This document shows positions 5,503 to 34,861 of a DNA stretch of 41,590 bases, in pieces. Position 1 is the first letter of the stretch; every line of letters starts with the position of its first letter. The stretch spans positions 1-41,590 of the forward strand of contig CAZNCI010000002.1 of NCBI GenBank assembly GCA_964571475.1. Reading direction: 5' to 3'. Source of the stretch: an uncultured Saprospiraceae bacterium (GTDB taxonomy: Bacteria > Bacteroidota > Bacteroidia > Chitinophagales > Saprospiraceae). Under the pieces are notes generated by a model. The model saw only the letters and a program-made list of their open reading frames with translations, ran no database searches and was not told where the DNA came from. A program made the position numbers and the translations under genes.

Positions 5503-5504
5503 TG

Positions 5505-8937: not shown

Positions 8938-8943
8938 TTATAT

Positions 8944-16547: not shown

Positions 16548-16549
16548 AT

Positions 16550-18742: not shown

Positions 18743-18756
18743 GACTTACTAAAATC

Positions 18757-18796
18757 AAAAAGCGATGCTCCGTTGTATCTCGGAGTATCGCTTTAT
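18757..18796. terminator. Bidirectional rho-independent terminator (glnN on +, nuo transcription unit on -)
   Basis: A 12-bp stem, AGCGATGCTCCG (18761-18772) pairing with CGGAGTATCGCT (18781-18792), contains one G:U pair. It is flanked by AAAATCAAAA on one side and TTTAT on the other. Confidence 0.75.
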
Positions 18797-18807
18797 ACGG
18801 TAATAGA

Positions 18808-19137
18808 TCATTTCTCCCAATACTCCGGTTTCGTCTCCTCCGTCCTTTGGTTCCAATAATCAGGGGTTACCTTACGCCCATCCTTTGTGTGCAACTCTCG
18901 ATTATAAACGGCAATCACAGGATTAAACACCAGATCGGTAACAGCTACAGTGTATAATTGAGGGTCTTCTTCCGACTTCCTTTTTTCTTCAACCGTCAGA
19001 ACAGTATAACCGTTCAATTCCAATAACTCCTTCAAAAAGTCAACGCGTGCCTGATCAATTTTTTTCTCGACATAAGTCACCTTTGTACCATCCGCTAACT
19101 CTCCAAATAAGTGCCTCCCTTTATTTAATGCTGACAT
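18808..19137 (-). CDS. Hypothetical 109-aa soluble protein, last gene of the kor-nuo string
   Basis: The ATG lies 24 nt after the nuoN stop on the same strand. There are no cysteines and no TM segment. The terminator follows directly. I recognise no family. Confidence 0.6.
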   Translation of the reverse strand: MSALNKGRHLFGELADGTKVTYVEKKIDQARVDFLKELLELNGYTVLTVEEKRKSEEDPQLYTVAVTDLVFNPVIAVYNRELHTKDGRKVTPDYWNQRTEETKPEYWEK

Positions 19138-19161
19138 TATTACTAACTTTAAATTTTAAAC

Positions 19162-20589
19162 CTATTTCAATAATCCTCCCATCCCAAAAACATACTCGTA
19201 AATTGGACTGTACAGCCCAATCGCCAATACTCCAACAACACATAATACCAAACCCACTTTTAGTAAATTATCCGTTTTAATATACGGAATGGCTTCGTCA
19301 CTCTGCCTCAAAAACATCGCACGAACCACCAGTAAATAGTAATACAATGAGATAATTACATTAATCACAGCTATTGTCACCAGCCAATAATACCCTTCAC
19401 TCGCTGCGCCTACAAATAAGAAGAACTTACCAAAGAAACCTGCTACCGGAGGGATTCCTGCTAAAGAAAACAATGACAACAACATCACCAAACTCAACTT
19501 GGGGTTCGTTCGATACAAACCTTCATATTCCTTCATATTCTCCTTGCCCGTAGCAAAAGAAATAGCCTGAACAACCCCAAATGCCCCTAAATTAGAGAAG
19601 ATATAAATCAAAACAAAATACAAAATCACCGACATACCCAAATGTGCAGCCGCCATCAGCCCCAATAATAAAAAACCAGCCTGTGCCACTGATGAAAAGG
19701 CCAAAAATCGTTTCATATTCGTTTGCCGTATGGCAAATAAATTACCAATCGTCATCGTCACTATGGACAATACATATATCACATCCTTCCATACCACCTC
19801 CATTGATTTCATCGCCGTAAACAAAATAATAGTCAATATAAAGGCTGCTGCTCCCTTTGACACAACGGACAAATAAGAAGTCACATTGACCGGGGCTCCC
19901 TCATAAACATCTGCCGTCCAAAAGTGAAACGGCACCAAAGATAATTTAAAAGCCAGGCCTGCCATGAAAAATATCAATGCCAATATCTCCAATGGTCCAC
20001 TTCCGATCGACGATGCAATCTCATCAAAATAGACAGAACCCGTCACGCCATATATCATCGAAATGCCATATAGTGCGACGCCTGATGCCATAGCTGCAGA
20101 CAATATAAACTTAATACCCGCCTCCGCTGATTTTTTATTGTAAATATCGTAAGCAGCCAGTGCCGCAATAGGTAAGGATGATAGCTCCAGTCCTATATAA
20201 AACATCAAAAAATCACCGGCTGAAATCATGAAATACATCCCCAATAAGGTCGAAAATATCAATAGATAAAATTCACTCCCTCTTCCTTGATCAATCAAAT
20301 CTCTTTTAATCCAGGAAGCAGATTGAAACAAAACGATCAATACCCCGATATTTAATACATTCTTCATAAAATGTGTCAAGGCTGAATTATGGTACATTTT
20401 GCCAAACAATTGCCCGTATTCCGTAGGGAAGAAACCCGCGATTGTCTGTATAGCAAACAATCCAATGGAGATCGAAATAATCAAATTTCGCTTTTCTCTG
20501 GATAGAAATATCTCCGCACACAATACAATCAAAATTATTGCGGTTAACAATATCTCCTGACGCATCAATAAAAATTTACTTAATTCCAT
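19162..20589 (-). CDS. nuoN: NADH-quinone oxidoreductase subunit N
   Basis: 475-aa polytopic antiporter-like protein, placed last in the conserved nuo order. Confidence 0.9.
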   Translation of the reverse strand: MELSKFLLMRQEILLTAIILIVLCAEIFLSREKRNLIISISIGLFAIQTIAGFFPTEYGQLFGKMYHNSALTHFMKNVLNIGVLIVLFQSASWIKRDLIDQGRGSEFYLLIFSTLLGMYFMISAGDFLMFYIGLELSSLPIAALAAYDIYNKKSAEAGIKFILSAAMASGVALYGISMIYGVTGSVYFDEIASSIGSGPLEILALIFFMAGLAFKLSLVPFHFWTADVYEGAPVNVTSYLSVVSKGAAAFILTIILFTAMKSMEVVWKDVIYVLSIVTMTIGNLFAIRQTNMKRFLAFSSVAQAGFLLLGLMAAAHLGMSVILYFVLIYIFSNLGAFGVVQAISFATGKENMKEYEGLYRTNPKLSLVMLLSLFSLAGIPPVAGFFGKFFLFVGAASEGYYWLVTIAVINVIISLYYYLLVVRAMFLRQSDEAIPYIKTDNLLKVGLVLCVVGVLAIGLYSPIYEYVFGMGGLLK

Positions 20590-20726
20590 CTTTCTTTAAT
20601 TAAGATATTTTGGCATTTATTTTTTTCTTGGGCGAGTCACGTAAAAACGTGACCAGGCTATCCGCACTCGCTCTTTCTAAAAAGAGCTCAAACAATTGCT
20701 TCTATCCTTCTCGCAATCCATTTTCA
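20590..20726 (-). other. Atypically long structured intercistronic spacer (nuoM-nuoN)
   Basis: The gap is 137 nt, against 20-54 nt for all other nuo junctions. It holds two stem-loops: GTCACG/CGTGAC (20636-20653) and GCTCTTT/AAAGAGC (20670-20687). It is a GC-rich island in an AT-rich context. Confidence 0.6.
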
Positions 20727-22220
20727 TCAATGAAAGAACTTCTCCATCATTGGAATAATACTATCGGTAATCATATTTGACACCCACAAAGGAGCCATCC
20801 CTAACCCCATAATGGGGATAATCAACAATACTGCCCCGACTTTCTCAAACCACATTGCCTTGGGAAGATCCCTGAATTTTTCATTTTTGACCGGTCCCAT
20901 CAGCATCAGGCCTACTACCCGTAAAATATACACCGCCGTCACCACAATAGCCGAAATCGACACGACCGTTGCTATTCTGTAAAATAATTCCTTATGCTGA
21001 AATGCCCCTACAAAAATAGTCATTTCTGCTACGAATCCACTCAAGCCCGGCAAACCGAGAGACGCCAAACCCGCAATCACATAAACGGCGGATATAAACG
21101 GCAGTATCTTCATCAATCCCCCCATTTTATACACATCCCGGGTATGTGTCCGACCATATAGCATCCCAATCAAACCAAAGAATAATGCCGTCATCAATCC
21201 ATGAGATAACATCTGCAATATGGCTCCGGTAAACGCAATCTGATTCACCATCAATATCGCATAAAAAACCAAACCACAGTGACTCACGGAGGAATAAGCA
21301 TTGATATATTTCAAGTCCGTTTGTGCAATCGCTCCAAAGGCGCCATATATCACACTAATCGCTGTTAATATCACAAATATCCAGCCCATCTCTGCTGCGG
21401 CATCAGGCATCAGGTACATCGCCACCCGAAACGCGCCATAACCTCCCAGCTTCATCAACACCCCTGCATGCAACATGGATACTGCCGTAGGTGCCGATGC
21501 GTGACCATCAGGAGACCAGGTATGAAATGGGAACAATGCCCCCAAAACGCCAAACCCCATAAAGGTAAACGGGAAGAAAAAACGCTGGGCTTCAACTGGA
21601 ATTGTATTCTTCGCAATTTCTAAAATATTAAAAGTCAAAGCACCTCCATCCGGTGCCGAATTAAAATAAATGCCCAAGAGCCCTACCAATAAAAAGGCGG
21701 AACCTCCCATCAGCATTAAGGTCAATTTCATGGCGGCATACTCCTTTTTCCCGCTTCCCCAGATTCCTATCAATAAATACATCGGAATTACGGCTACTTC
21801 GTAAAAAAGAAACATCGTGAACAAATCAAGCGAAATAAAGAACCCAAATACGCCCATTGCCAGAATAATCAGAGAGATAAAAAACTCCTTCGTCATATTC
21901 TCAACCTGCCAGGAAATAAATACCCCCGCAAAAGTCACAATGCCCGTCAATAAAATCATCACAACAGAAATACCATCTACCCCAATATCATAATGAATAT
22001 TGAAATGCTCAAACCAAACATAACTCTTGGTGAAAACCATAGTCGCCGTATTGCCATTTGCCCGTTCGCCCAAATAGGCAAAAACAAGATAAATAGCCTG
22101 CACGAACTCCAAGCCCATCCCTATTGCCGAAATAACACGAGCCTGCTTAAAATCCCGACTAAACACCAATGCGACAACTGTCAAAAACGGTATAACAACC
22201 AATAATGTTAAAATATCCAT
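20727..22220 (-). CDS. nuoM: NADH-quinone oxidoreductase subunit M
   Basis: 497-aa antiporter-like membrane subunit in the conserved position. Confidence 0.9.
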   Translation of the reverse strand: MDILTLLVVIPFLTVVALVFSRDFKQARVISAIGMGLEFVQAIYLVFAYLGERANGNTATMVFTKSYVWFEHFNIHYDIGVDGISVVMILLTGIVTFAGVFISWQVENMTKEFFISLIILAMGVFGFFISLDLFTMFLFYEVAVIPMYLLIGIWGSGKKEYAAMKLTLMLMGGSAFLLVGLLGIYFNSAPDGGALTFNILEIAKNTIPVEAQRFFFPFTFMGFGVLGALFPFHTWSPDGHASAPTAVSMLHAGVLMKLGGYGAFRVAMYLMPDAAAEMGWIFVILTAISVIYGAFGAIAQTDLKYINAYSSVSHCGLVFYAILMVNQIAFTGAILQMLSHGLMTALFFGLIGMLYGRTHTRDVYKMGGLMKILPFISAVYVIAGLASLGLPGLSGFVAEMTIFVGAFQHKELFYRIATVVSISAIVVTAVYILRVVGLMLMGPVKNEKFRDLPKAMWFEKVGAVLLIIPIMGLGMAPLWVSNMITDSIIPMMEKFFH

Positions 22221-22274
22221 AATTCTTATATTAATATTTTTAATGGCAAAAACTCAATTAAATACCATTAAACA

Positions 22275-24191
22275 CTATCCTTTTAAATAGACAAAAATCA
22301 ATACCAATGCCAAAACACCTGATATAAATGCAAATGCGTAATCCTGCACCCGTCCTGATTGAACCCCCTTGATTCTTCCAGAAACAGCAGCCGTAATTCG
22401 CCCCAAAAGATTCATAAAGCCATCTATAATATTTCGGTCAAACCAGGCGACTGACTTGGCTATTATCCCGAATAGAATACTTTTTGTGACAAACATATAC
22501 ACCTCATCTATATAAAACTTATCATAAGTCCATTTATAAACTGATCCAAAATTTCCGGCAACCCTATCCGGCAAATCTGATTTTTTCTTATAAAATAAAT
22601 AGGCGACTAAAATCCCCAGCACACCAATACCTATTGATGGCAAAGCAACCAACCAATCTATATGTGTGTGAAACGCGTGCCCATCTGATGTGACCAAATC
22701 ATGAAATGGAATAAACCCCGTTGTCACACTGGCAATAGCGAGAATGATCAAAGGGATCGTCATCGTCAAAGGTGACTCATGAGGCGCGTGCTCATACTTT
22801 TTATCACCACCCCAAAATATATTAAAATACAACCTGAACATATAAAATGCCGTCAATCCTGCCACAATATATTCCACTACAAAAAGAAAGGTATTCTGGT
22901 GCAAAGCTGCTGCCAATATCTCATCCTTACTAAAAAATCCAGCGCCGGGAGGGATACCGGAAATTGCGATACAGGCCATTAAAAACGTAATATGTGTAAT
23001 GGGCATATATTTGCGCAAACCGCCCATATCTCCCATTAAATTACTATGAACCGCATGGATAATAGATCCCGCCCCAAGGAACAATAACGCCTTAAACATC
23101 GCATGGGTAAATAAATGAAACATCGCCGCCATAAACCCTAAGCCTTCATGATCTCCATAACCCGACACCCCTAATGCCAGCATCATATACCCTAACTGCG
23201 ACATGGTAGAAAAAGCCAACACCCGCTTAATATCCGTCTGCGTACAGGCAATTACTGCCGCAAACACGGAGGTAAATCCTCCCACATAAGCAATAAACTC
23301 CAATGCATCCGGTGCCGCAAAATGATACAAAGGAAATAATCGCGCCACCAAATAAACACCGGCAACTACCATGGTCGCTGCGTGAATCAATGCTGAAACA
23401 GGAGTAGGTCCCTCCATGGCATCTGGCAGCCAAATATGCAAAGGAAACATGGCAGACTTACCGGCACCACCCATAAAAACGAGCAATAAAGCCCATGTCA
23501 TCGCTGACATACCCATAAATGCGATACCCGCACCCTGGGTCATCGCCGCGCCATTAAGATCAGTTAACAATTGAAAATCAAAGGTTCCCGTTAGGGCGGA
23601 AATCAACAAAATACCAATTAAAAATCCTAAATCTGCAAATCGAGTAACGATAAAGGCTTTTTTAGAAGCCGCTACCGCTGAAGGTTTATCATAGTAAAAG
23701 CCAATCAAAAGGAAGGAAGAAACACCTACCAACTCCCAAAACATATACATCTGGAACAAATTCGTCGCAACGACAAGTCCAAACATTGAGAAACTAAACA
23801 GAGATAAAAACGCAAAAAAGCGATAAAATCCCGGGTCTCCTTTCATATATCCAAGACTATAAATGTGCACCATCAGGGAAATAGTCGATACCACCACCAA
23901 CATCATCACCGAAATGGGATCTAATAAAACACCCATATCAATGTGCAATGTTTCTGTAAAAGAAAGCCAAGTCGTATTAAAACCAATTATTTTATGATAA
24001 GTCTCCTCAACTTTTCCTACCTGAAAGAAGTACCTCCAGGCAGTCATATATGACAGCACTGCCGAGATAGCAATTGCTCCTGTACTTATCAACCCCCAAA
24101 TTTTAGGCGATTTATTATTACCCAAAAGCCCAACAACAAAGAAGGCTAAAAAAGGTATTAATGGTATCCAAATTGTATAGCTAAAATCCAT
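22275..24191 (-). CDS. nuoL: NADH-quinone oxidoreductase subunit L
   Basis: 638 aa. It is antiporter-like with the long C-terminal extension typical of NuoL. Confidence 0.9.
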   Translation of the reverse strand: MDFSYTIWIPLIPFLAFFVVGLLGNNKSPKIWGLISTGAIAISAVLSYMTAWRYFFQVGKVEETYHKIIGFNTTWLSFTETLHIDMGVLLDPISVMMLVVVSTISLMVHIYSLGYMKGDPGFYRFFAFLSLFSFSMFGLVVATNLFQMYMFWELVGVSSFLLIGFYYDKPSAVAASKKAFIVTRFADLGFLIGILLISALTGTFDFQLLTDLNGAAMTQGAGIAFMGMSAMTWALLLVFMGGAGKSAMFPLHIWLPDAMEGPTPVSALIHAATMVVAGVYLVARLFPLYHFAAPDALEFIAYVGGFTSVFAAVIACTQTDIKRVLAFSTMSQLGYMMLALGVSGYGDHEGLGFMAAMFHLFTHAMFKALLFLGAGSIIHAVHSNLMGDMGGLRKYMPITHITFLMACIAISGIPPGAGFFSKDEILAAALHQNTFLFVVEYIVAGLTAFYMFRLYFNIFWGGDKKYEHAPHESPLTMTIPLIILAIASVTTGFIPFHDLVTSDGHAFHTHIDWLVALPSIGIGVLGILVAYLFYKKKSDLPDRVAGNFGSVYKWTYDKFYIDEVYMFVTKSILFGIIAKSVAWFDRNIIDGFMNLLGRITAAVSGRIKGVQSGRVQDYAFAFISGVLALVLIFVYLKG

Positions 24192-24226
24192 AAGACACGC
24201 TTTACTAAATTGTAATTTAAAATTCT

Positions 24227-24544
24227 TTAATACTTCATTTCTGTGGTTTCATCCACATCTACTGATTTCACCAAACGGTACAAATCAACAATAATCGCAA
24301 TGGCAATGGCCACTTCCGCCGCTGCAATGGCAATCATAAACAGGGTAAAAAACAGCCCCTGAGAATCTCCCGGATGGAGATATACATTAAAAGCCACGAA
24401 ATTTATGGCAACGGCATTCAAAATCAACTCCACCGACAATAGGATGGAAATCAAATTTTTCCTTGTCAAAAAGCCATAAATACCAATGAAAAATACAATT
24501 GTCGAAACAATCAAAATTTCATATAATCCGACACCTGGTATCAT
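24227..24544 (-). CDS. nuoK: NADH-quinone oxidoreductase subunit K
   Basis: 105 aa with 3 TM segments and the motif LLSVELILNAV. Confidence 0.9.
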   Translation of the reverse strand: MIPGVGLYEILIVSTIVFFIGIYGFLTRKNLISILLSVELILNAVAINFVAFNVYLHPGDSQGLFFTLFMIAIAAAEVAIAIAIIVDLYRLVKSVDVDETTEMKY

Positions 24545-24564
24545 AATATTTATTTTTTACTTTA

Positions 24565-25071
24565 TTATTTTTCAATCTTTGGTCGTTTAGCAATGACAAT
24601 CGCTCCTATCATTGCCGCCAAAAGCAAAATACTTATCAACTCAAAAGGAAGCACATATCCTCCTGCCTCAAAACTCAATAAACGCGTACCTATATCATCG
24701 ACCCTTGCTAATTGTCCTGTTGATTTTTTCTCAAAAGTATGACCCAAAATAGTCGTGATGGAGATAAAAGCCCCAAAAATAACAGCCAGCCCACTTAATA
24801 TAGTCATAAGGAGTTTAGGTCTGGGCAGCTGACTATCAATCCGCTCCGTCAAAAGAATAGCAAATATGATAAGTACGACAATACCTCCGGCATACACCGT
24901 TAATTGCACCGCTCCCAAAAAATGATAACCTACCTGAAAATACAACCCGGCTATTCCTATTAAAACAAAAAAAAGGTAAACAGCTGCACGAAGAATCTTG
25001 GTGCTTGTCACGGATAAAAGTGAAAACCCAACAATCATAGTGGCTAAAATATAAAATATTATACGTTCCAT
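24565..25071 (-). CDS. nuoJ: NADH-quinone oxidoreductase subunit J
   Basis: 168-aa membrane protein, in position between nuoI and nuoK. Confidence 0.85.
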   Translation of the reverse strand: MERIIFYILATMIVGFSLLSVTSTKILRAAVYLFFVLIGIAGLYFQVGYHFLGAVQLTVYAGGIVVLIIFAILLTERIDSQLPRPKLLMTILSGLAVIFGAFISITTILGHTFEKKSTGQLARVDDIGTRLLSFEAGGYVLPFELISILLLAAMIGAIVIAKRPKIEK

Positions 25072-25099
25072 TTAAGGATATTTTTTATAGTACTAAATG

Positions 25100-25585
25100 T
25101 TATTCTTCTACTCCGGGAGCTAATTTCGAACCCGGCTTATTCAATACTTTTGTTAATTTTGAACGATCAAAAACAGCGTGCTCAAACTCCTGCCCCATGA
25201 TAATCGCATCCGTCGGACAGGCAGGAATACACAGGCCACACATGGTGCACATAGATAAATGATAAATATGCTGAACAATGGCTTTTTTCTTCTTGCCCGT
25301 CTCGGGATCAGGTTTTCTATCCCAAATAATTTCGATAGATCCATTTGGACAGGCAATTTCACAGGATTGGCAGCCTGTACACCTATGTTCATTCTCTTCG
25401 TTATGAGGCATAATCACCTCCCCACGAAACCGATCAAACATCTTCAGCTCATCCCGATTATCAGGATACTGCTGCGTGATAATTTCCTTTCGCGCATGGA
25501 AAAAATAATAGCCCGTCACCCTCATACCTTTGATGAGCGTCTTAACGCCATGACCTATTTCTGAAAAATATTTTACTACACCCAT
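25100..25585 (-). CDS. nuoI: NADH-quinone oxidoreductase subunit I (2x[4Fe-4S])
   Basis: Two ferredoxin motifs are present: CTGCQSCEIACP and CTMCGLCIPACP. Confidence 0.9.
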   Translation of the reverse strand: MGVVKYFSEIGHGVKTLIKGMRVTGYYFFHARKEIITQQYPDNRDELKMFDRFRGEVIMPHNEENEHRCTGCQSCEIACPNGSIEIIWDRKPDPETGKKKKAIVQHIYHLSMCTMCGLCIPACPTDAIIMGQEFEHAVFDRSKLTKVLNKPGSKLAPGVEE

Positions 25586-25613
25586 TGTGCCTATATTTTT
25601 TATCCTATTAATT

Positions 25614-26696
25614 TTAATTGCCGAAATACCAACCCATATAAATCATGAACGCCATGAATACAAGGTTCATCAAATTTAATGGCAAAAGATATTTCCACTC
25701 TAATGTCAATAGCTGATCTATTCTCAATCGAGGGAAAGTCCACTTAAACCACATCATAATAAATATGATAAAAGACACCTTTCCGAAAAACCAAAATATG
25801 GGTGGGATATAATCCATCACCTGATTAAACCCGGCTAAATTCCCTATATGAAACGGCATCCACCCCCCTAGGAATATCGTAGCAGCGACAACCGATACAA
25901 TAAACATATTCACAAATTCAGCTAAGAAGAAAAACGCAAATTTCATTCCTGTATATTCCGTGTGAAAACCCGCCGTCAGCTCCGACTCTGCTTCTGCCAA
26001 ATCAAAAGGCCCTCTATTCACTTCTGCCGTAGCTGATATTAAGAAGAGTACAAATGCAATAAATGCAGGTGTATGCCCCTTGAAAATAAACCAACCGTCT
26101 GCCTGATGCTCTATAATTGTTGAAATCTGAAGGCTACCACTCATCAATACAATTGTCAATATGGCGAGCCCAACGGAGAGTTCATAACTAACGACCTGCG
26201 CCCCACTTCTCATCGCACCAATTAACGAATATTTATTATTACTCGCCCACCCGGCCAACAGAATTCCTACTACGCCAATAGAGGAGATCGCAATAATAAA
26301 AAACACCCCAATATTAATATCAAATGCCAATAAGCCTTTTGCAAAGGGAGTTAATGACAAAGCAATTAGTGAAGTAATAATGATAATAAAAGGAGCAAAA
26401 TTAAAAAGAAACCCATCAGCGCCCCTCGTCATTATCGGCTCTTTCAATAATAACTTCAAGGTATCCGCTGTTGTTTGGGCAAGCCCCCAGGGTCCTACTC
26501 TATTCGGTCCTAACCTCAATTGAAAAAATGCACAAACCTTTCTTTCTGCCAATACCAATACTAAACCCAGCAAAGCAAAAAATCCCAAAAAGATCGCCCC
26601 AATTATAAGCCACTCAACGAAGGAAGCCATACCCGGAGACATACTTGATAACAAGCTCTGGTGAATAGAATCGACTAAATTTGTAAAATCATACAT
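25614..26696 (-). CDS. nuoH: NADH-quinone oxidoreductase subunit H
   Basis: 360 aa and polytopic. NuoH/ND1 motifs include RLGPNRVGPWGLAQ and FDLAEAESEL. Confidence 0.9.
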   Translation of the reverse strand: MYDFTNLVDSIHQSLLSSMSPGMASFVEWLIIGAIFLGFFALLGLVLVLAERKVCAFFQLRLGPNRVGPWGLAQTTADTLKLLLKEPIMTRGADGFLFNFAPFIIIITSLIALSLTPFAKGLLAFDINIGVFFIIAISSIGVVGILLAGWASNNKYSLIGAMRSGAQVVSYELSVGLAILTIVLMSGSLQISTIIEHQADGWFIFKGHTPAFIAFVLFLISATAEVNRGPFDLAEAESELTAGFHTEYTGMKFAFFFLAEFVNMFIVSVVAATIFLGGWMPFHIGNLAGFNQVMDYIPPIFWFFGKVSFIIFIMMWFKWTFPRLRIDQLLTLEWKYLLPLNLMNLVFMAFMIYMGWYFGN

Positions 26697-26720
26697 GAAT
26701 AAACACTTTTAATTAATACC

Positions 26721-27857
26721 CTACCGGTCAATATCCGGCATCACTAAATCCAGCGTTGACATTGTCGCGACCAAGTCGGCTATTTTGCCCCCGGTTGCGA
26801 TATGATCCAACACAAATAAATTCGAGAATCCGGGAGAACGGAACTTCAGCCGATAAGGATTCTTCTTGCCATCACTAATAATATATACCCCCAACTCACC
26901 TCGCGCCGTCTCTACCCGTTGGAAAAAATCTCCCTTGGGTAATTTAATAACTGCATTGGTCTTTTCCTGAATAGCTCCTTCCGGAATATTATCAATCAAC
27001 TGCTCAATAATGCTAATAGACTCCCACATCTCCTGAATCCGGACCTTATATCGGGCAAACGCATCTCCTTCTGTAAATAAAATCTCTTTAAAGTCCACCT
27101 TATCATAGGCGTGGTAGGGCTTTTTCTTTCTTATGTCACAGGCAAAACCAGATGCCCTTCCCGCAGGGCCTGTCACCCCATAAGCAATAGCATCCTCCTT
27201 GGTAAGCACCCCTATGCCCTTCGTTCTTTCCTGAAAAATGACATTACCCGTCAATAATTCGTCGTATTCCGGCAATTTTGTTTTAAAATGCGCCAAAAAC
27301 TCCTTCGTTCGTTTTTGAAAATTAGGGTGAATATCCTGTGCCAAACCACCGGGAAGGTTGTAATTCATCGTCAAGCGTGCGCCACAGGTCTCTTCAAAGA
27401 TATCGGAGATCATTTCCCGGTCTCTAAAACCGTATAGGAAAGTTGTAATGGCTCCCAGGTCCATCCCCATCACTCCCCACCACAATTGATGAGAAGCCAA
27501 ACGGGTTAATTCGTCAATAATGGTTCGAATCACTTTTACACGATCAGACACCTCTATTTCCAGTGCATTTTCAACAGCTAAACAAACGGCTGCATTATTG
27601 ATATGACAGGAAAGATAATCCATCCTGTCCGTCAGATGTACAATTTGCCGATAACTATCCTTTTCGCACATTTTTTCAATAGAGCGGTGGATGTAGCCAA
27701 TATGTGGCTGAATATGCCTCACCGTTTCCCCGTCAATGGTTAAAACCAACCTAAGCACTCCGTGTGTTGAAGGGTGTTGAGGCCCCATATTCACAAAGTA
27801 CTCCTGACTCTCGAAGGGTTTGTTGGTATTCATTTTATTTTGTTCTGCAACTTCCAT
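26721..27857 (-). CDS. nuoD: NADH-quinone oxidoreductase subunit D
   Basis: 378 aa, NMGPQHPSTHGVLRL...DIDR C-terminus. It follows nuoC and is directly followed by nuoH after a 24-nt gap, so no nuoE/F/G lies between them. Confidence 0.9.
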   Translation of the reverse strand: MEVAEQNKMNTNKPFESQEYFVNMGPQHPSTHGVLRLVLTIDGETVRHIQPHIGYIHRSIEKMCEKDSYRQIVHLTDRMDYLSCHINNAAVCLAVENALEIEVSDRVKVIRTIIDELTRLASHQLWWGVMGMDLGAITTFLYGFRDREMISDIFEETCGARLTMNYNLPGGLAQDIHPNFQKRTKEFLAHFKTKLPEYDELLTGNVIFQERTKGIGVLTKEDAIAYGVTGPAGRASGFACDIRKKKPYHAYDKVDFKEILFTEGDAFARYKVRIQEMWESISIIEQLIDNIPEGAIQEKTNAVIKLPKGDFFQRVETARGELGVYIISDGKKNPYRLKFRSPGFSNLFVLDHIATGGKIADLVATMSTLDLVMPDIDR

Positions 27858-27879
27858 AAGTTACTAATATTTTTGCATT

Positions 27880-28338
27880 TTACATTTCTACGATATTCAC
27901 CTCGTCTTTATAATCCTTTCGCATAGGATAGCCCTCCCAATCCTCCGTCAATAACAATCGGCGAAGATCCGGATGATTGTTAAAGACGATTCCGTACAAA
28001 TCAAAAATTTCCCTTTCGTGAAACTCTGCCGTGGGCCAAATATCACAAACGGTATCAATCACCGGCTGCTCTCTATCTGCCGTTTTCACTTTCATCACGA
28101 TAATATGCCCGTGTGTACTAGACTCAAGATGATAAACCACCTCCAAACAACTGGGCCAATCCACCCCGGATTGACAGAATAGGTAATCAAAGGCTGTCGC
28201 CTGATTATCCTTCAGTTGTCGGGCAAATTGATGAAGCGATTCCCTCGGTACAACTACCTGCAAAAATGCCTGCTCTTCATCAAACTCTAATCCTTCCGCT
28301 AAGGGCGAAATTAATTTTATTAATGCTGCTTTGTCCAT
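27880..28338 (-). CDS. nuoC: NADH-quinone oxidoreductase subunit C
   Basis: 152 aa. The motif AEFHEREIFDLYGIVFNNHPDLRRLL is typical of NuoC (30-kDa subunit). Confidence 0.9.
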   Translation of the reverse strand: MDKAALIKLISPLAEGLEFDEEQAFLQVVVPRESLHQFARQLKDNQATAFDYLFCQSGVDWPSCLEVVYHLESSTHGHIIVMKVKTADREQPVIDTVCDIWPTAEFHEREIFDLYGIVFNNHPDLRRLLLTEDWEGYPMRKDYKDEVNIVEM

Positions 28339-28383
28339 AAAGCTATTTTTTCGTAATAGGTAAAATCATTTCTTTAGGTAACT

Positions 28384-28929
28384 CTAAAATCCTTCGTGAA
28401 AATGCTCATCGGGATTTTTTCGCTTGCCCATTTGTTCCGTTTTAATCTTCTTTTGTAATTCCATAATACCATAAAGCAAAGCCTCTGGACGAGGAGGACA
28501 TCCCGGAACATATACATCAACTGGAATGACATGATCTGCTCCTTTCACTACAGAATATGAATTATAAAAGAAAGGTCCACCAGAAATAGCACACGCCCCC
28601 ATTGCAATCACGTATTTAGGCTCTGCCATTTGATCGTACAAACGGCGAAGCACTGGTGCCATTTTATTAACAATTGTTCCAGCAATAACAATTAAGTCTG
28701 CCTGTCGGGGAGTCGCTCGTGCAACCTCCGTCCCAAAACGAGACCAGTCATGCCTTGCAGCACCGGTTGACATCATTTCGATTGCACAACAACTCGTGCC
28801 AAATGTTAGAGGCCATAAAGAGTTGGCTCGACTCCAATTGACGACTTTATCAATAGAGGTAATCAAAATATTCCCTCCATTTCCTGCGGGAATGATTGTC
28901 CCTATTTCATGTTTTTCAATATCACCCAT
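28384..28929 (-). CDS. nuoB: NADH-quinone oxidoreductase subunit B (N2 cluster)
   Basis: The motifs [27 protein letters not shown] and [11 protein letters not shown] are present. Confidence 0.9.
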
Positions 28930-28966
28930 GATTATTCTGAATATTTAACCCATTAATAAACTGCTT

Positions 28967-29317
28967 CTACTCCCACTCTAAAGCTTTCTTTTTCCAGGCA
29001 TATAATAATCCCAAGCCCAATATGATTAAAAAGACCAAGGCCTCTGCAAAAGCAACCCCTCCTACTTTCTTCATCACAACAGCCCAAGGGACTAGAAACA
29101 CCATTTCTACATCAAAAACCAAAAATAAAATGGCAAAGAGATAATAACCTACTTTAAACTGCACGTGCGTAGGACCTTCGGTTGACACACCACATTCGTA
29201 AGGATCTTCTTTATGCTCGTTTGTTGACCGGGGTGCTAATAATGACGAGGCAATCATAGCCCCACCAACAAATACCACTCCAGCGACAAAAAATACTAAT
29301 ATTGCTTCTAGTCCCAT
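28967..29317 (-). CDS. nuoA: NADH-quinone oxidoreductase subunit A
   Basis: 116 aa with 3 TM segments and the motif YECG.....FKVGYYLFAILFLVFDVE. Confidence 0.9.
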   Translation of the reverse strand: MGLEAILVFFVAGVVFVGGAMIASSLLAPRSTNEHKEDPYECGVSTEGPTHVQFKVGYYLFAILFLVFDVEMVFLVPWAVVMKKVGGVAFAEALVFLIILGLGLLYAWKKKALEWE

Positions 29318-29340
29318 TGGATATATTCTTTAATTATTAA

Positions 29341-30345
29341 TTAATCAACTGTCCATGTGTCTCCGGAAAGCAATAAGTCATCAACAGATTTAAACTTAGA
29401 ATTAGCTTTCACCTGCTCCATCTGCTCTCCAACTCTATCCCCAAGTGTTAAATCTCCTACACTTCTGATAATACCCATCGCCATCGGTGACTGCATACGT
29501 GCCAACATGGAGTGTAATGTCATATCAGGATCCTTCGCATCGTGTACCAAAATATCAGCTTCCGTCACGCCATCTTCTCCGATGGTGACTACTTCCAGTT
29601 TTAGACCATTTAGTCGAATACCTTTATTCTTTTCTTTTCCAAAAATCATTGGCTTGCCGTGTTCTAACCACAATTGCTGGTCATCACGCACGTCCTTATG
29701 AACCGTTCCGTCAAAGACACCATCGTTAAAGATGACGCAATTTTGCAACACTTCGATCACGGAGGTTCCATGAAAAGCTTCCGCCTCTACAAAAGTAGCG
29801 GTTAATTCCTTAGGTCTGTTACCCGGAATACGTGCAAAAAAGCGCGAATTAGCCCCCAACGCCAATGTCGCCGGATGAAATGGTTGTTGTGTATTTCCGT
29901 AAGGGGAAGATTTTGTTTTCAAGCCTAACTCTGTGGTAGGAGAAAACTGCCCCTTGGTCAAACCATAAATCTCATTATTGAAAAGAATCAAATTTAGGTT
30001 AATATTTCTACGAATGACGTGGATGAAGTGGTTGCCACCAATCGCCATAGAGTCGCCATCACCGGTAATCACCCAGACACTTAAATCAGGATTAGCCAAT
30101 TTGACACCCGTTGCAATCGCAGGGGCGCGTCCATGAATACTATGAACGCCATAGGTATTCATATAATAAGGGAAACGGGAAGAACAGCCGATTCCAGAAA
30201 TAAAAGCAAATTTTTCTTTCTTGACCCCCATTAGAGGCAATGCTTTTTGTACCGATCTCAAGATGACATAATCATCACAACCGGGACACCAGCGCACTTC
30301 CTGATCGCTGGCCATATCTTTATAAGTATAAATAGGATTTTCCAT
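29341..30345 (-). CDS. korB: 2-oxoglutarate:ferredoxin oxidoreductase, beta (TPP-binding) subunit
   Basis: 334 aa. It has an N-terminal WCPGCDDY motif and the TPP motif GDGDSMAIGGNH. Its stop lies 23 nt before the nuoA ATG. Confidence 0.85.
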   Translation of the reverse strand: MENPIYTYKDMASDQEVRWCPGCDDYVILRSVQKALPLMGVKKEKFAFISGIGCSSRFPYYMNTYGVHSIHGRAPAIATGVKLANPDLSVWVITGDGDSMAIGGNHFIHVIRRNINLNLILFNNEIYGLTKGQFSPTTELGLKTKSSPYGNTQQPFHPATLALGANSRFFARIPGNRPKELTATFVEAEAFHGTSVIEVLQNCVIFNDGVFDGTVHKDVRDDQQLWLEHGKPMIFGKEKNKGIRLNGLKLEVVTIGEDGVTEADILVHDAKDPDMTLHSMLARMQSPMAMGIIRSVGDLTLGDRVGEQMEQVKANSKFKSVDDLLLSGDTWTVD

Positions 30346-30377
30346 TTTTTTTATCTTTTTTTTATGACAAGTGATGA

Positions 30378-32255
30378 TTAATCATTCTTGAGTGATTGAT
30401 TGAATTTTTGTACCAACTCCATTATGGTAAATGGCAGCCCCTGTATTTTATTATACTTCAAAAAAGTATTGTCAGGGTATCTGGATTGTAATACGGATGC
30501 CATCTGACCCAAATTCAATTCACATACAAGAATCTTCTTAAATCTACTGAATACTTCTGCTGTATTCTTAGGCATTGGGTTGATATAATTAAAATGTACA
30601 TAACCAACCTTATCGCCCGTTTCATTCATATAGTTGACAGCCGTATGAAGACTACCATAGGTTCCTCCCCAGCCTACAATCAGCAAATCTCCTGATTGAG
30701 CCCCCTCAACATTCAACTCCGGGATATAATTCTCTACTCTTCTAATTTTTTCTGATCGCACCTTCGTCATCTCTTCGTGATTCTTAGGCACATAAGACAC
30801 ATTACCAGTCAGCTGGTCTTTTTCCAATCCACCAATTCGGTGTTCCAAACCTTCTGTGCCGGGAATCGCCCACTCTCTGGCAAGCGTTTCTTTATCTCTT
30901 TTGTATGGCATCCACTGCTCACCTTCTTTATATACCGCTATCGGAGGAGTAATAGAAGGCATATCCGCCATCGTCTTAATCCTCCAAGGTTCTGAGCCAT
31001 TCGCAATATATCCATCCGTCATTAAAATAACAGGAGTCATGTGCTCAAGCGCCAATCGTGAAGCTTCATAAGCAAAGTCAAAACAGTTGGCAGGGGTGCT
31101 TGCCGCAACGACAATTGTTGGGCTATCCCCATTTCGGCCATAAAGCACCTGAAATAAATCCGACTGCTCCGTTTTGGTAGGAAGACCTGTTGACGGGCCT
31201 CCTCGCTGTACATTGACAATTACGATGGGCAATTCTGTAATGGTTGCCAATCCAATGGCTTCCCCTTTCAATGCCAAACCAGGACCGGAAGTTGTTGTGA
31301 TAGCCAAATCACCGGCAAAAGCTGCTCCAATGGCAGAACAGATACCCGCGATTTCATCCTCTGCCTGAAATGTTTTCACACCAAAGTGCTCGTGCTTTGA
31401 CAATTCGTGTAAGATATCAGAAGCAGGTGTAATAGGATAAGATCCAAGGAACAGTTCTAAATTTGCTTTTTCTGCTGCGGCAATAAATCCCCAGGCGGTT
31501 GCTGCGTTACCCATAACGATTCGGTACTTACCCGGTTTCATCGTTGCAGGAAGGATCGTGTGCTTAGAAGGCAATAATTCAAGTGTATCCGCATAATTAA
31601 ATCCGGCGCGCAACACACGAATATTAGACTCAACAATCTTTGGCTTTTTCGCAAATTTCTTTTTGATGAAATGCTCGGTATGATCCAAAGGCCTGCTAAA
31701 CATCCAAAAGACCATACCCAAAGCAAACATATTCTTGCTTCGATTCATGGCTTTATTATCCAAGCCCATATCCAAAATCGCTGATCGGGAAAGTGTAGTT
31801 ATATCTACCTGAATTACCTTATAATTGTCTAAACTCCCATCTTCCAGCGGATTTGAGGAATATTCAGCTTTTGCTAAATTCTTCTTGGTAAAACTATCCG
31901 TGTCAATGATTAATGTCTTCCCGGGAGGAAGTGCTTCCAAATTTGTTTTTAACGCTGCAGGATTCATTGCTACTAATACATCAACATCATCACCCGGTGT
32001 GCTAACTTCACTATGTCCAATATGAACCTGAAAGCCTGAAACGCCATAAACGCTCCCTTGAGGTGCTCTAATCTCCGCAGGATAATTTGGGAAGGTAGAA
32101 ATGTCATTTCCCAAAAGCGCTGAGGTCTCTGTGAATTGAGTGCCTGTCAATTGCATCCCATCTCCTGAATCCCCAACAAACCTAATAACAACACTATCTA
32201 ACGCGTTGATTTCAGCTTCGCTGCTTGGAGTTGTTTTTATTTTTTCAACTGCCAT
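30378..32255 (-). CDS. korA: 2-oxoglutarate:ferredoxin oxidoreductase, alpha (fused gamma-alpha) subunit
   Basis: 625 aa. The N-terminal gamma-like domain is FVGDSGDGMQLTG. The alpha domain is GSYPITPASDILHEL...TTSGPGLALKGEAIG...VQRGGPSTGLPTKTEQSDL. Confidence 0.85.
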   Translation of the reverse strand: MAVEKIKTTPSSEAEINALDSVVIRFVGDSGDGMQLTGTQFTETSALLGNDISTFPNYPAEIRAPQGSVYGVSGFQVHIGHSEVSTPGDDVDVLVAMNPAALKTNLEALPPGKTLIIDTDSFTKKNLAKAEYSSNPLEDGSLDNYKVIQVDITTLSRSAILDMGLDNKAMNRSKNMFALGMVFWMFSRPLDHTEHFIKKKFAKKPKIVESNIRVLRAGFNYADTLELLPSKHTILPATMKPGKYRIVMGNAATAWGFIAAAEKANLELFLGSYPITPASDILHELSKHEHFGVKTFQAEDEIAGICSAIGAAFAGDLAITTTSGPGLALKGEAIGLATITELPIVIVNVQRGGPSTGLPTKTEQSDLFQVLYGRNGDSPTIVVAASTPANCFDFAYEASRLALEHMTPVILMTDGYIANGSEPWRIKTMADMPSITPPIAVYKEGEQWMPYKRDKETLAREWAIPGTEGLEHRIGGLEKDQLTGNVSYVPKNHEEMTKVRSEKIRRVENYIPELNVEGAQSGDLLIVGWGGTYGSLHTAVNYMNETGDKVGYVHFNYINPMPKNTAEVFSRFKKILVCELNLGQMASVLQSRYPDNTFLKYNKIQGLPFTIMELVQKFNQSLKND

Positions 32256-32478
32256 AATAATTTGGTATTTACTTGTTATTAATTTGAGGGGCTAATGTAG
32301 GTATTCACTAGGAAATAACAAACTTCCATAAGGTAATTTTAGGTAATATCCTAATTTATACTGAATCTAAATTAGACAAAAATATTAAAAATATCTTTAC
32401 AATGAGTAGAAAGCTTATTAATCTTGCAATCGAATCCTTTATAAGGAGGTATTTTCTAATCAAATTAACAAAACAATT

Positions 32479-32829
32479 ATGGCAATTATAATAACAGATG
32501 AGTGCATCAATTGTGATGCTTGTATCTCAGAATGTCCCAATAATGCAATTTATGAACCGGATGAGGAATGGTCTTATGCTGATGGAACAGCTTTAAGTGG
32601 CTCGATAGAATTACCTGGTGGCGGAACAGCTGATGCTGATGAAAAGCATGAACCTATCTCAGATGAATTCTACTTCATTGTTACTGATAAGTGTACGGAA
32701 TGTAAAGGTTTCCATGATGAACCTCAATGTGCTTCAGTTTGTCCTGTTGACTGTTGTGTTCCCGATGAGGATCACGAAGAGGATGAAGATACACTAATGA
32801 AGAAAAAAGTATGGATGCACGGAGAATAA
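32479..32829 (+). CDS. YfhL/Alvin-type 2x[4Fe-4S] ferredoxin with a roughly 35-aa internal insertion
   Basis: Motif 1 is CINCDACISECP. Motif 2 is CTECKGFHDEPQCASVCP (CxxCx8CxxxCP). The inter-motif spacer is 52 aa, against about 17 aa in E. coli YfhL as I remember it. The gene is transcribed divergently from korA. Confidence 0.85.
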   Translation: MAIIITDECINCDACISECPNNAIYEPDEEWSYADGTALSGSIELPGGGTADADEKHEPISDEFYFIVTDKCTECKGFHDEPQCASVCPVDCCVPDEDHEEDEDTLMKKKVWMHGE

Positions 32830-32856
32830 GCTCCTAAATAAATTTTTTCTTTCTAT

Positions 32857-32904
32857 AAAACGCCTTTAAATTTATCTGACTAAATTTGAAGGCGTTTTTT
32901 TTAT
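32857..32904 (+). terminator. Rho-independent terminator of the ferredoxin gene
   Basis: AACGCCTTTAAATTT pairs with AAATTTGAAGGCGTT as a 15-bp stem with one G:U pair. It is followed by T8. Confidence 0.8.
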
Positions 32905-32980
32905 TTTTAAATTTATTTTAAAATATATTGTCTTTTTTGCAACCTAGTTCGTTAATCCCCGTAACAAATAAAACATAATA

Positions 32981-33023
32981 TAGATTAGATCTTTTACGTA
33001 GATCTTTTTTTGATTGTAGATCA
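32981..33023 (+). repeat. Cluster of TAGAT(C) direct repeats (iteron-like)
   Basis: The copies are TAGAT at 32981, TAGATCT at 32986, TAGATCT at 32999 and TAGATCA at 33017. They are interleaved with the small palindromes AGATCT, TACGTA and AAGCTT. Confidence 0.6.
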
Positions 33024-33278
33024 AGCTTGAGAGTCTAGTGGCTCAAGAACTAAGTCTTTGGTACCATAGAAGAAGTTATTTTTTGCATGATTTGTATTGG
33101 TGAAACCGGAGTTATGCCATAGCGTAATGAGGATTTCCCCAATACGAAGCAGGTGAAAAAGAACGATTCAATGGTGCTAAAAACTTAATGCCGGAGGCAC
33201 CAACATACCTTTATGCACACCTCTCTTAAACCGAGCCAGTAATTAATTTTTAAGCCAGTTTGATTTTACAGAAACACT

Positions 33279-33617
33279 ATGAACACTTTTATGAAAGGAG
33301 ACGATGCGTTTCCATCTAGAGATTGGTCGATGTTGCCCAATGCATTAGCGACATTAGAGTCAATCATCCATCCTCAGAACAAAATAATTTTTGACCTTCT
33401 ATTAACAGAAGGAGAGGTTGAACACCATGAATTACTTCAAAAAACAGGTCTTAATCCTCGTCAATTCAAACGCAGGATAGATCGACTTTTAAAGTATGAC
33501 CTAATCCATAAATTTAGCGGAATATCACAGACTTTTTACGCAATTAAAGATTCGCGTATGGATATGATTTACAAAAACAGCATCACCATTATCCACAATA
33601 CATTGTCAGTGATTTGA
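33279..33617 (+). CDS. Small winged-helix (ArsR/MarR-like) DNA-binding protein
   Basis: 112 aa. The pattern HPQNKIIFDLLLTEGEVEHHELLQKTGLNPRQFKRRIDRLLKYDLIHKF...TFYAI fits a helix-turn-helix plus wing. The gene is monocistronic between two terminators. Confidence 0.6.
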   Translation: MNTFMKGDDAFPSRDWSMLPNALATLESIIHPQNKIIFDLLLTEGEVEHHELLQKTGLNPRQFKRRIDRLLKYDLIHKFSGISQTFYAIKDSRMDMIYKNSITIIHNTLSVI

Positions 33618-33640
33618 TAGGTATTCACTGCCGTGCAATA

Positions 33641-33694
33641 AAAAAACTCACTGGAAAATTTTTAGTCTAAATGACACTCCAGTGAGTTTTTTAT
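33641..33694. terminator. Bidirectional terminator (wHTH gene on +, serA-like gene on -)
   Basis: AACTCACTGGA (33645-33655) pairs with TCCAGTGAGTT (33678-33688). It is flanked by an A-run upstream and a T-run downstream. Confidence 0.75.
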
Positions 33695-33700
33695 TATCTC

Positions 33701-34648
33701 CTAAGAAAAATAAGCGATTAATTTATCTGCCAATTCCATTCCAATATTAGTTTGGGCTTCGACCGTTGAGCCACCAATATGTGGGGATACGGATATTAGC
33801 GGATGATTTAATAAGTCTTTTCCAGGTGTGGGCTCATCTTCAAATACATCTATTGCAGCAAATCCAATTTCACCCTTGTCCAATGCATCCAATAAGGCAG
33901 TTTCATCGATCATGCCTCCACGTGAAGTATTGATAATGGTCGCAGTTGGTTTCATCAATTGAAGTTCGTATTCGCCTATAATAGCTCCATTGGAAGTAGG
34001 AACGTGAATAGAAATAAAGTCACTATTTCGCAACATGGTATCCATATCAACAGTTGGCACTTTCACTGCCAACTTTATTTGATTGCTTTGATATAAGTTC
34101 AAATCAATGGCTACATCCAAATCCGGCAATAAATCAACGGGAAGGATATTCATACCCATTCCTATTCCAATCCTTGCGGTCTCTCTTCCTATTCGTCCAA
34201 AACCAATAATTCCCAACGTCTTACCTCTCAATTGAAAACCTTTGGAATATGCTTTTTTTAATTGCTTAAAATCTCCATCCTTCATATCTCGATTAGCCTG
34301 ATGCAAATATCTCGCTACATTAAACATATGGCCAAACACCAATTCTGCGACTGCCTCTGATGAAGCTGCGGGGGTATTCATCACCTCCCTGCCGATCGAC
34401 CTTGCGTACTCATGGTCGATATTATCGAGTCCTACACCTGCTCTGGCAATCACCTTTAAATTGGGGCAGTGGTCAATTAATTCTTTGCGTACCTTTGTGG
34501 CACTCCTTACAATAATAGCATCATAATCCGGCAATTTATCCATTAAGTCATCCTGAGCTATTTTTTCGGTATCAACCTGAAAGCCTGATTCTTCTAAAAG
34601 AAATTTTGCATCTGGATGAATTCCATCATTTGCTAAAATTTTTATCAT
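33701..34648 (-). CDS. serA: D-3-phosphoglycerate dehydrogenase / D-isomer 2-hydroxyacid dehydrogenase (short form, no ACT domain)
   Basis: 315 aa. The NAD motif is GIIGFGRIGRE. The catalytic region is NTSRGG..DE.AL..AL..G....AAIDVFE.EP and SPHIGGST. Confidence 0.75.
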   Translation of the reverse strand: MIKILANDGIHPDAKFLLEESGFQVDTEKIAQDDLMDKLPDYDAIIVRSATKVRKELIDHCPNLKVIARAGVGLDNIDHEYARSIGREVMNTPAASSEAVAELVFGHMFNVARYLHQANRDMKDGDFKQLKKAYSKGFQLRGKTLGIIGFGRIGRETARIGIGMGMNILPVDLLPDLDVAIDLNLYQSNQIKLAVKVPTVDMDTMLRNSDFISIHVPTSNGAIIGEYELQLMKPTATIINTSRGGMIDETALLDALDKGEIGFAAIDVFEDEPTPGKDLLNHPLISVSPHIGGSTVEAQTNIGMELADKLIAYFS

Positions 34649-34842: not shown

Positions 34843-34861
34843 TATTTATATTGGTGCTGAC

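Follow-up and report, generated by a model that had tools for sequence, protein, structure and literature searches.

Genes for a 2-oxoacid:ferredoxin oxidoreductase joined to an eleven-gene headless complex I operon in Saprospiraceae and related Bacteroidota: a candidate ferredoxin-fed respiratory module

Among the closest described systems to the locus reported here are the headless NDH-1 complexes of gut Bacteroidales (Bacteroides fragilis BF638R_0850-0841, Phocaeicola vulgatus bvu_1750-1759, and Prevotella; 10 or 11 genes), which are encoded without nuoE, nuoF and nuoG, the genes of the NADH-binding N-module. The NUO complex of B. fragilis does not oxidise NADH, and its donor was drawn as 'unknown Xred' (PMC7002350). 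Ferredoxin is the working model or assumed donor for the headless NDH-1 of gut Bacteroidales, Phocaeicola and Prevotella (PMC11405475, citing Franke and Deppenmeier 2018; PMC6560451), and is also the working model for Desulfitobacterium (PMC11238625). Ferredoxin use by the headless complex I of Bacteroidota is an existing working model and not a new one. Here we report a locus from an uncultured Saprospiraceae bacterium, at positions 18808–32829 of a contig stretch of 41,590 nucleotides (nt), hereafter the window. In this locus an operon of the same gene order, nuoA-B-C-D-H-I-J-K-L-M-N (nuo11), is joined to korA and korB, the genes for a two-subunit 2-oxoacid:ferredoxin oxidoreductase (KorAB), and a ferredoxin gene (fdx) faces korA on the opposite strand.

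Compared with the gut Bacteroidales operons, to which it is related by phylum, the window has korAB and the facing ferredoxin gene in addition, and its nuoC and nuoD are separate genes, whereas those of B. fragilis are fused (PMC11304471). Its operon also ends with a gene of an unannotated family (orf109), a feature established for the window side of this comparison, and the named carriers described below are Flavobacteriaceae, Saprospiraceae and Chitinophagaceae of sea and soil rather than of the gut. The 11-subunit nuoABCDHIJKLMN operons described in the literature have the same gene set and an unsettled donor, for which ferredoxin reduced by pyruvate:ferredoxin oxidoreductase (PFOR) was proposed. 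In those accounts no donor gene is linked to them and no shared partner was identified, and a previous attempt to find a partner protein common to this class is summarised as having failed (PMC3144371, summarised in PMC11238625); in the window there are a linked candidate donor enzyme, a carrier gene and a lineage-wide extra gene. Spero et al. described partial operons with flavodoxin (Campylobacter), with F420H2 or ferredoxin (archaea) and with a then-unknown donor (cyanobacteria) (PMC4453560). The same logic as proposed here, in which a low-potential carrier feeds an NADH-independent complex I, is given in that account for Campylobacter jejuni, with electrons passing from OorDABC through flavodoxin to Nuo (Weerakoon and Olson 2008; in PMC4453560). 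In Campylobacter the carrier is a flavodoxin, Oor has four subunits, and NuoE and NuoF are replaced by the products of two other genes in the operon, whereas the window has a ferredoxin, a two-subunit KorAB, nuoD abutting nuoH, and physical linkage, and is not of the Campylobacter type. The oor and nuo genes of Campylobacter are reportedly not adjacent. The NDH-1 of cyanobacteria and chloroplasts (6HUM, 6KHI, 7EU3) shares the 11-subunit core without the N-module and has ferredoxin as its established donor; the NuoD of the window matches NdhH with an E value of 1e-88, as good as its match to any complex I. The cyanobacterial enzyme requires NdhS, NdhV and NdhO for ferredoxin docking and uses a plant-type [2Fe-2S] ferredoxin, whereas no homologue of these three subunits was found in the window, its ferredoxin is of the 2[4Fe-4S] type, and its quinone is expected to be menaquinone.

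The junction between the kor and nuo genes was surveyed from both sides. For the kor side, one genome per Genome Taxonomy Database (GTDB) species was scanned with KorB, which gave 80 loci that were mapped by tblastn; for the nuo side, metagenome contigs were scanned with NuoB, which also gave 80 loci, 65 of them with enough upstream DNA to be informative. Further genomes carrying the junction were added by exact-protein look-ups. We found korAB directly followed by nuoA in 10 of the 80 kor-side loci, from Flavobacteriaceae, Saprospirales and Cyclobacteriaceae (Mariniflexile, Eudoraea, Salegentibacter, Salinimicrobium flavum, several metagenome-assembled genomes (MAGs) of Flavobacteriaceae, Flavobacteriales and Bacteroidetes, one Saprospirales MAG and two Cyclobacteriaceae MAGs). 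The order nuoA to nuoN was complete within the fetched DNA in all ten except locus L029, where it ends after nuoH, and the short contig L033. Among the informative metagenome nuo11 loci, korB was located immediately 5' of nuoA in 18. The junction was also observed in the isolate Muriicola marianensis, with 17 nt between the end of korB and nuoA, in a Saprospiraceae MAG, and in the closest relative of the window, the ENA contig L169, which matches the window in gene lengths and in flanking genes; the closest relatives in general are Saprospiraceae MAGs. Because the same gene order recurs in many independent genomes, the arrangement is not a matter of chance. In a neighbour-joining tree built on NuoB, NuoD and NuoH, the kor-linked operons, including that of the window, fell essentially into one clade. 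One locus without kor (L086) was placed inside this clade, the Cyclobacteriaceae locus stood on a separate branch, and two other large nuo11 clades were entirely without kor. A literature search, the coverage of which was incomplete, found no description of kor-nuo synteny or of the orf109 family. As a separate observation, L029 (13492–17912, a Cyclobacteriaceae MAG) carries kor-nuoABCDH followed by genes for YceI, MarR and a type III DNA methylase, and not by nuoI-N, a layout that a split operon, a recent disruption or an assembly error could explain.

Other ferredoxin-linked genes were also found near nuo11. The ferredoxin gene was divergent from korA in 21 loci. In 14 loci of the Flavobacteriaceae type, fdx was followed on the same strand by a gene for a PFOR of 1177 amino acids (aa) with POR_N, POR, EKR, Fer4 and TPP_C domains (3768–7301 on the minus strand of L003, with equivalents in L002, L004–L009, L011, L014, L090, L093, L101 and L103). 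The layout is PFOR<-fdx <-> korAB(-nuo11-orf109), and nuo11 was located behind korB in 10 of the 14. Since the PFOR gene stands beside fdx, two ferredoxin-reducing enzymes and a carrier, and in 10 of the 14 loci the pump as well, are encoded in one region. No PFOR gene occupied that position in the window or in its Saprospirales relatives. In a nuo11 lineage without kor, a cluster of HdrC-, HdrB (CCG)-, HdrA- and MvhD (FlpD)-like genes, together with genes for two further Fe-S proteins, was divergent from nuoA; it is complete in L120 (3570–9304, minus strand) and L126 (3339–9068, minus strand) and partial in L124 and L127. Such Hdr-like clusters are a ferredoxin-linked enzyme class. On the 1.9-kb metagenome contig L092, a ferredoxin homologue with 50% identity (95–445, minus strand) is divergent from nuoA (1045 onwards, plus strand); the 600 nt between fdx and nuoA contain no kor and no open reading frame (ORF) that reaches 60 aa.

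KorA, a fused gamma and alpha subunit of the OAFO superfamily, scored 656 bits with TIGR03710 (cut-off 483), and its best solved relative is the 2-oxoglutarate:ferredoxin oxidoreductase (OGOR) of Magnetococcus (6N2N_A, E 7e-71). KorB matched 6N2N_B with an E value of 1e-52 and reached 234.7 bits with TIGR02177, under the cut-off of 261.9; its orthologues in L166, L167 and L169 bear the Pfam domain TPP_enzyme_C. The four Cys residues of KorB are consistent with a single [4Fe-4S] cluster, and the protein probably has no ferredoxin domain of its own. The NCBIfam models for KorAB name only '2-oxoacid' and the closest solved relative is an OGOR, and we infer 2-oxoglutarate as the probable substrate.

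The product of fdx scored 92 bits with NF033683 (cut-off 86). Two Cys motifs, CxxCxxCxxxCP and CxxCx8CxxxCP, precede a C-terminal extension, and the protein is strongly acidic (pI 4.05). The best matches in the Protein Data Bank (PDB) are the ferredoxins of Allochromatium vinosum, Pseudomonas aeruginosa and Thauera aromatica and YfhL of Escherichia coli. Each of these relatives, with 1BLU and 3EXY among the aligned structures, matches it in two blocks around an insertion of about 30 aa (residues 31–60). With 116 aa, against 80–82 aa in the solved relatives, it is not a compact chain of about 80 aa. The insertion belongs to a conserved form of the ferredoxin: homologues across Flavobacteriaceae and Saprospiraceae are 75–90% identical and always 116–117 aa long, whereas KorB reaches at most 73% identity. 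A pairing of two-subunit KorAB with an Alvin-type ferredoxin is known from Thauera aromatica, where the ferredoxin delivers electrons to benzoyl-CoA reductase and not to a respiratory complex; the window ferredoxin matches that of Thauera (1RGV) with an E value of 4e-14 and differs from it by the insertion. Because a terminator-like hairpin with a T-run lies directly 3' of fdx, the arrangement suggests that fdx is monocistronic in the window. Beside fdx lies a further gene, orf112 (33279–33617, plus strand), which had no family match, occupies the same position in L169 (10631–10969), and was judged by eye to resemble a small winged-helix regulator.

The core set of eleven genes (nuoA, B, C, D, H, I, J, K, L, M and N) is complete and clustered, and each gene has an NCBIfam match. 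An earlier note on this DNA, made from the sequence alone, had listed fourteen minus-strand genes in the order korA, korB, nuoA-B-C-D-H-I-J-K-L-M-N, orf109, and the ORF list (inspected from 17000 to 35000) and NCBIfam gave the same order (Table 1). The distances in that note were also confirmed, namely gaps of 20–54 nt throughout with nuoM-nuoN (137 nt) as the sole exception, 23 nt between korB and nuoA, and a divergent fdx-korA region of 223 nt, as were the YfhL type of the ferredoxin, by NF033683, and the hairpin with T-run after orf109, the only intergenic one of the unit. The note's statement that the N-module is absent from the unit likewise held. nuoD adjoined nuoH in 80 of 80 nuo-side loci, and the nuoD-nuoH gap was 24 nt in the window and 7–477 nt in 48 related loci, too little to accommodate nuoEFG; no NuoF signature motif was found by motif search in the window or in 160 related loci.

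On inspection of the sequences, the ligand motifs for the N2 cluster in NuoB and both 4Fe-4S motifs in NuoI were intact. His32 and Tyr81 of NuoD align with the quinone-site residues His95 and Tyr144 of Yarrowia NUCM. The best end-to-end NCBIfam model for NuoD was PRK12322, whereas the canonical NuoD models aligned in two pieces; by these alignments NuoD is a short form, like those of NUO11 and Fpo. There are one NuoL, one NuoM and one NuoN among the fourteen genes. The nuoM-nuoN spacer contains two hairpins (z -1.96) with no T-tail. Its sequence is unique in the window and absent from the 169 fetched loci, in which relatives have about 20–45 nt at this place; a repeat was considered for the spacer and rejected, as no second copy occurs in the window or the fetched loci, and the 137-nt form is specific to the lineage of the window. 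No RNA family of Rfam matched in the window.

Table 1 Features of the kor-nuo11-orf109 locus and the divergent ferredoxin gene in the window.
Feature	Position	Strand	Basis
Hairpin (18-bp stem) + T-run, terminator-like, 3' of fdx	32857..32908	+	hairpin scan
fdx, 116-aa Alvin/YfhL-type 2[4Fe-4S] ferredoxin	32479..32829	+	NF033683
fdx-korA divergent control region, 223 bp	32256..32478	.	
korA, 625-aa alpha subunit, two-subunit 2-oxoacid:ferredoxin oxidoreductase	30378..32255	-	TIGR03710
korB, 334-aa thiamine pyrophosphate (TPP)-binding beta subunit	29341..30345	-	homology to 6N2N_B
korB-nuoA junction, 23 nt, without promoter or terminator motif	29318..29340	-	
nuoA	28967..29317	-	NCBIfam
nuoB	28384..28929	-	NCBIfam; N2-cluster ligand motifs SCCAIE, GACA, GCPP
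nuoC, gene separate from nuoD	27880..28338	-	NCBIfam
nuoD, short 378-aa form	26721..27857	-	NCBIfam, quinone-site alignment
nuoH, begins 24 nt after nuoD	25614..26696	-	NCBIfam
nuoI, two CxxCxxCxxxCP motifs	25100..25585	-	NCBIfam
nuoJ	24565..25071	-	NCBIfam
nuoK	24227..24544	-	NCBIfam
nuoL	22275..24191	-	NF005141, 649 bits vs cut-off 556
nuoM	20727..22220	-	NCBIfam
nuoM-nuoN spacer, 137 nt, two hairpins, no T-tail	20590..20726	-	
nuoN	19162..20589	-	NCBIfam
orf109, 109-aa soluble Cys-free protein, unannotated family	18808..19137	-	no family match
Hairpin + T-run, intrinsic-terminator-like, closes unit after orf109	18751..18792	-	

The gene that closes the unit, orf109, belongs to a large family. 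A homologue was located immediately after nuoN in 17 of 19 loci with at least 350 nt beyond nuoN, and 13 of these 17 are without kor. The family was recorded for the window, L082, L088, L090, L093, L108–L156 and L161–L166, and a profile search of the six-frame translations of all loci found no copy elsewhere in about 2 Mb of related DNA. A single-sequence search gave 413 homologues and an exhaustive HMMER search gave 130 clusters at 50% identity, and a profile of diverse members matched at least 7832 proteins, all of them 'hypothetical' and none with a Pfam domain. Members with a named source come from Saprospiraceae, Flavobacteriaceae, Chitinophagaceae and one Bacteroidales MAG, and homologues occur in Salegentibacter, Lutibacter and Longitalea; in every genome that was looked up, the gene was 6–145 nt after nuoN of an operon of the A-B-C-D-H...N order. 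The protein is soluble and Cys-free, has invariant His, Glu, Arg, Phe, Asn, Trp and Tyr positions, and was modelled by AlphaFold2 as a small alpha/beta fold (predicted local distance difference test score, pLDDT, 81). Neither sequence nor profile searches gave a Pfam, NCBIfam or PDB match, and a Foldseek search of the PDB gave nothing significant (best E 0.26, TM score at most 0.43). A PII-like fold was considered and rejected on weak matches with TM scores below 0.4. orf109 is not an electron carrier, and it is likely to act as an accessory subunit, as an adaptor for donor docking or in assembly; we infer that the protein belongs to the complex or is needed for its assembly.

The signals for transcription support a single unit in the window. 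A generic sigma-70 promoter scan was uninformative there (45 matches, 46 expected), and the Bacteroidota -7 motif TAnnTTTG was used instead. On the minus strand between 18700 and 32600, its only intergenic match starts at 32384, upstream of korA, and the unit's sole intergenic hairpin with a T-run is the one after orf109, so far as these motifs go. These observations suggest that korAB, nuo11 and orf109 are probably co-transcribed in the window. Across 28 kor-linked relatives the korB-nuoA gap ranges from 0 to 211 nt, with 13 loci at 0–32 nt and 15 at 58–211 nt. A k-mer count over the fdx-korA intergenic regions gave no shared regulatory motif, only words that were AT-rich or lay at coding edges.

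Taken as a working proposal, Nuo11 with orf109 would be a proton-pumping ferredoxin:menaquinone oxidoreductase that is fed by KorAB through the 116-aa ferredoxin. KorAB would oxidise a 2-oxoacid, presumably 2-oxoglutarate, and reduce the acidic Alvin-type ferredoxin, with PFOR as an additional ferredoxin reducer in Flavobacteriaceae. The reduced ferredoxin would donate to the headless complex I of eleven subunits plus orf109, which would pass the electrons forward to menaquinone and pump protons. In the window, korAB and nuo would be co-transcribed from one promoter upstream of korA, with the transcript ending after orf109. Because the evidence is gene context, we give this proposal an even chance of being correct, and both ferredoxin as donor and the forward flow from ferredoxin to quinone stay predictions.

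The strongest alternative is adjacency without dedicated coupling, in which nuo11 and orf109 form a self-contained cassette that landed or was retained behind korB in one lineage. Electrons would then come from a general low-potential pool, from some other carrier or by way of NuoEFG encoded at another site, and the main role of KorAB and the ferredoxin would lie in other pathways. A number of observations weigh against the proposed chain, most of them also in favour of this alternative. kor was missing upstream in 47 of the 65 informative nuo11 loci, where the upstream genes were variable, and most nuo11-orf109 operons likewise had no ferredoxin gene close by. In 9 of the 17 closest KorB relatives (L001, L006, L009–L011 and L014–L017), korAB was kept with convergent genes after korB and no nuo, most of them with the divergent ferredoxin gene and with or without PFOR. 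The genus Muriicola is split in the same way: M. marianensis (L166) has korB-nuo11-orf109, whereas Muriicola sp. E247 (L011) has no nuo, and on the evidence of these two gene orders the nuo11-orf109 block is one that was gained or lost within one genus. The wide occurrence and high conservation of the ferredoxin suggest that it may serve many partners, and NuoEFG could be encoded elsewhere in the genome. No NdhS, NdhV or NdhO homologue was found, orf109 being the only extra gene and one that resembles nothing solved.

The relatives with long korB-nuoA gaps point the same way. In 10 of the 15 long gaps, TAnnTTTG lies 25–35 nt before nuoA (L003, L012, L083, L088, L089, L091, L095, L097, L098 and L101), and in 5 or 6 of them a terminator-like hairpin with a T-run follows just after korB (among L012, L084, L088, L091, L098 and L007). 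Since the long gaps hold promoter motifs and hairpins, separate expression of kor and nuo is probable in these relatives, and about one kor-linked relative in two is likely to have a separate promoter for nuo. The single fused transcription unit of the earlier note thus stands for the window, with its 23-nt gap free of promoter and terminator motifs, and does not extend to about half of the relatives. A promoter and terminator between korB and nuoA, which that note had named as evidence that would count against coupling, are closely approached by the sequence motifs of these relatives and not by the window. The long gaps weaken a strict operon fusion, and selection for co-inheritance or co-regulation is possible.

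Against the absence of coupling stands the recurrence of the same head-to-tail junction, in one orientation, in three orders and about 30 loci, 13 of which have gaps of 0–32 nt. PFOR, the Hdr-like cluster and the ferredoxin gene also recur beside nuo11, and no alternative donor module is conserved near it: the 47 loci without kor showed no recurrent donor family upstream of nuoA, the largest cluster comprising 4 loci, and the Hdr-like genes were the sole recurrence, in the 2 complete and 2 partial loci named above. Weighing both sides, we consider independence of the two modules to have roughly one chance in four. For kor-nuoA adjacency, the conservation that the earlier note had asked after was found in one nuo11 clade (Flavobacteriaceae and Saprospiraceae) plus Cyclobacteriaceae, and does not reach the majority of nuo11 loci or the sister genomes with fdx-korAB alone. 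By gene order, the kor-nuo linkage is real and lineage-conserved, is cassette-like downstream of korB, and is not general to headless complex I.

A less probable alternative, to which we give only a small share of our confidence, is that the complex runs in reverse. The proton-motive force (pmf) would push electrons from menaquinol up to ferredoxin, and KorAB as a 2-oxoglutarate synthase, together with PFOR in Flavobacteriaceae, would carboxylate reductively in an anaplerotic or mixotrophic assimilation of CO2. The closest solved relative of KorAB is the Magnetococcus OGOR, which is reportedly characterised as a CO2-fixing enzyme of the reverse tricarboxylic acid cycle, both carboxylation-capable oxidoreductases cluster with the ferredoxin gene, and the potentials of Alvin-type ferredoxins are sufficiently low to drive carboxylation. 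For Nitrospirota, too, complex-I-like enzymes have been proposed to work in reverse towards ferredoxin. However, the step from menaquinol (about -75 mV) to ferredoxin (-450 to -650 mV) is estimated to lie beyond a pump of 4 H+ per 2 e- at ordinary pmf, and the locus has no second NuoM or other extra pumping capacity. The sequence gives no indication of direction, and the named carriers of the cluster are aerobic heterotrophs, in which the need for a reverse route is not obvious. Direct docking, in which KorAB would replace the input module on NuoI, NuoB, NuoC and NuoD in a 2-oxoglutarate:quinone supercomplex with no soluble carrier and perhaps with orf109 as adaptor, fits the short korB-nuoA gaps (23 nt in the window, 0–19 nt in ten relatives), the presumed single cluster of a KorAB that probably has no ferredoxin domain of its own and the conserved, subunit-like orf109, but is very improbable given that orf109 is equally conserved in many nuo11 operons without kor, that half of the kor-linked loci have long gaps, often with hairpins or promoter motifs, that korAB stands alone in sister genomes, and that the ferredoxin gene adjoins korA.

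Within the proposed chain from KorAB through ferredoxin to Nuo11, a more specific and tentative idea, which we think rather less likely than the chain itself, concerns orf109. It may be a twelfth subunit of the headless complex I that builds or gates the ferredoxin-docking site, an analogue of NdhS, NdhV and NdhO with an unrelated fold, in which case the supercluster would be the signature of a dedicated route that takes electrons from 2-oxoacid by way of ferredoxin to menaquinone.

Other genes of the window were noted in passing. At 13888–18742 on the plus strand, an 824-aa fused E1 alpha/beta component of a 2-oxoacid dehydrogenase is encoded beside a 730-aa type III glutamine synthetase; the glutamine synthetase gene converges on the 3' end of the nuo unit, and related loci with about 1 kb of sequence past orf109 did not show this neighbourhood. 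At 7873–11258 on the minus strand, genes for two thioredoxin-like/DUF255 paralogues (378 and 393 aa) stand in tandem after one for an AIR-synthase-related protein. Type IX secretion system (T9SS) sorting domains and Porin_10 are also encoded in the window, according to Pfam, and support its origin from Bacteroidota.

To the question of which donor feeds the widespread bacterial 11-subunit complex I, the locus brings a clade whose pump genes are physically linked with those of a ferredoxin-reducing enzyme and a carrier, and a phylum-wide unannotated gene that follows nuoN. It also brings named isolates with the arrangement, Muriicola marianensis and Salinimicrobium flavum, in which the donor question is accessible to genetics and membrane biochemistry; both, like Salegentibacter, Lutibacter and Longitalea, can be cultured aerobically. 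The added observations, PFOR beside fdx and the orf109 family, raise the value of the locus as a lead. If the proposal is true, the respiratory chains of Bacteroidota that abound in sea and soil would gain a high-yield ferredoxin-oxidising coupling site, and, if the idea about orf109 also holds, kor-fdx(-PFOR)-nuo11-orf109 would encode an energy-conserving route by which aerobic Bacteroidota of these habitats pass electrons from 2-oxoacid by way of ferredoxin to menaquinone.

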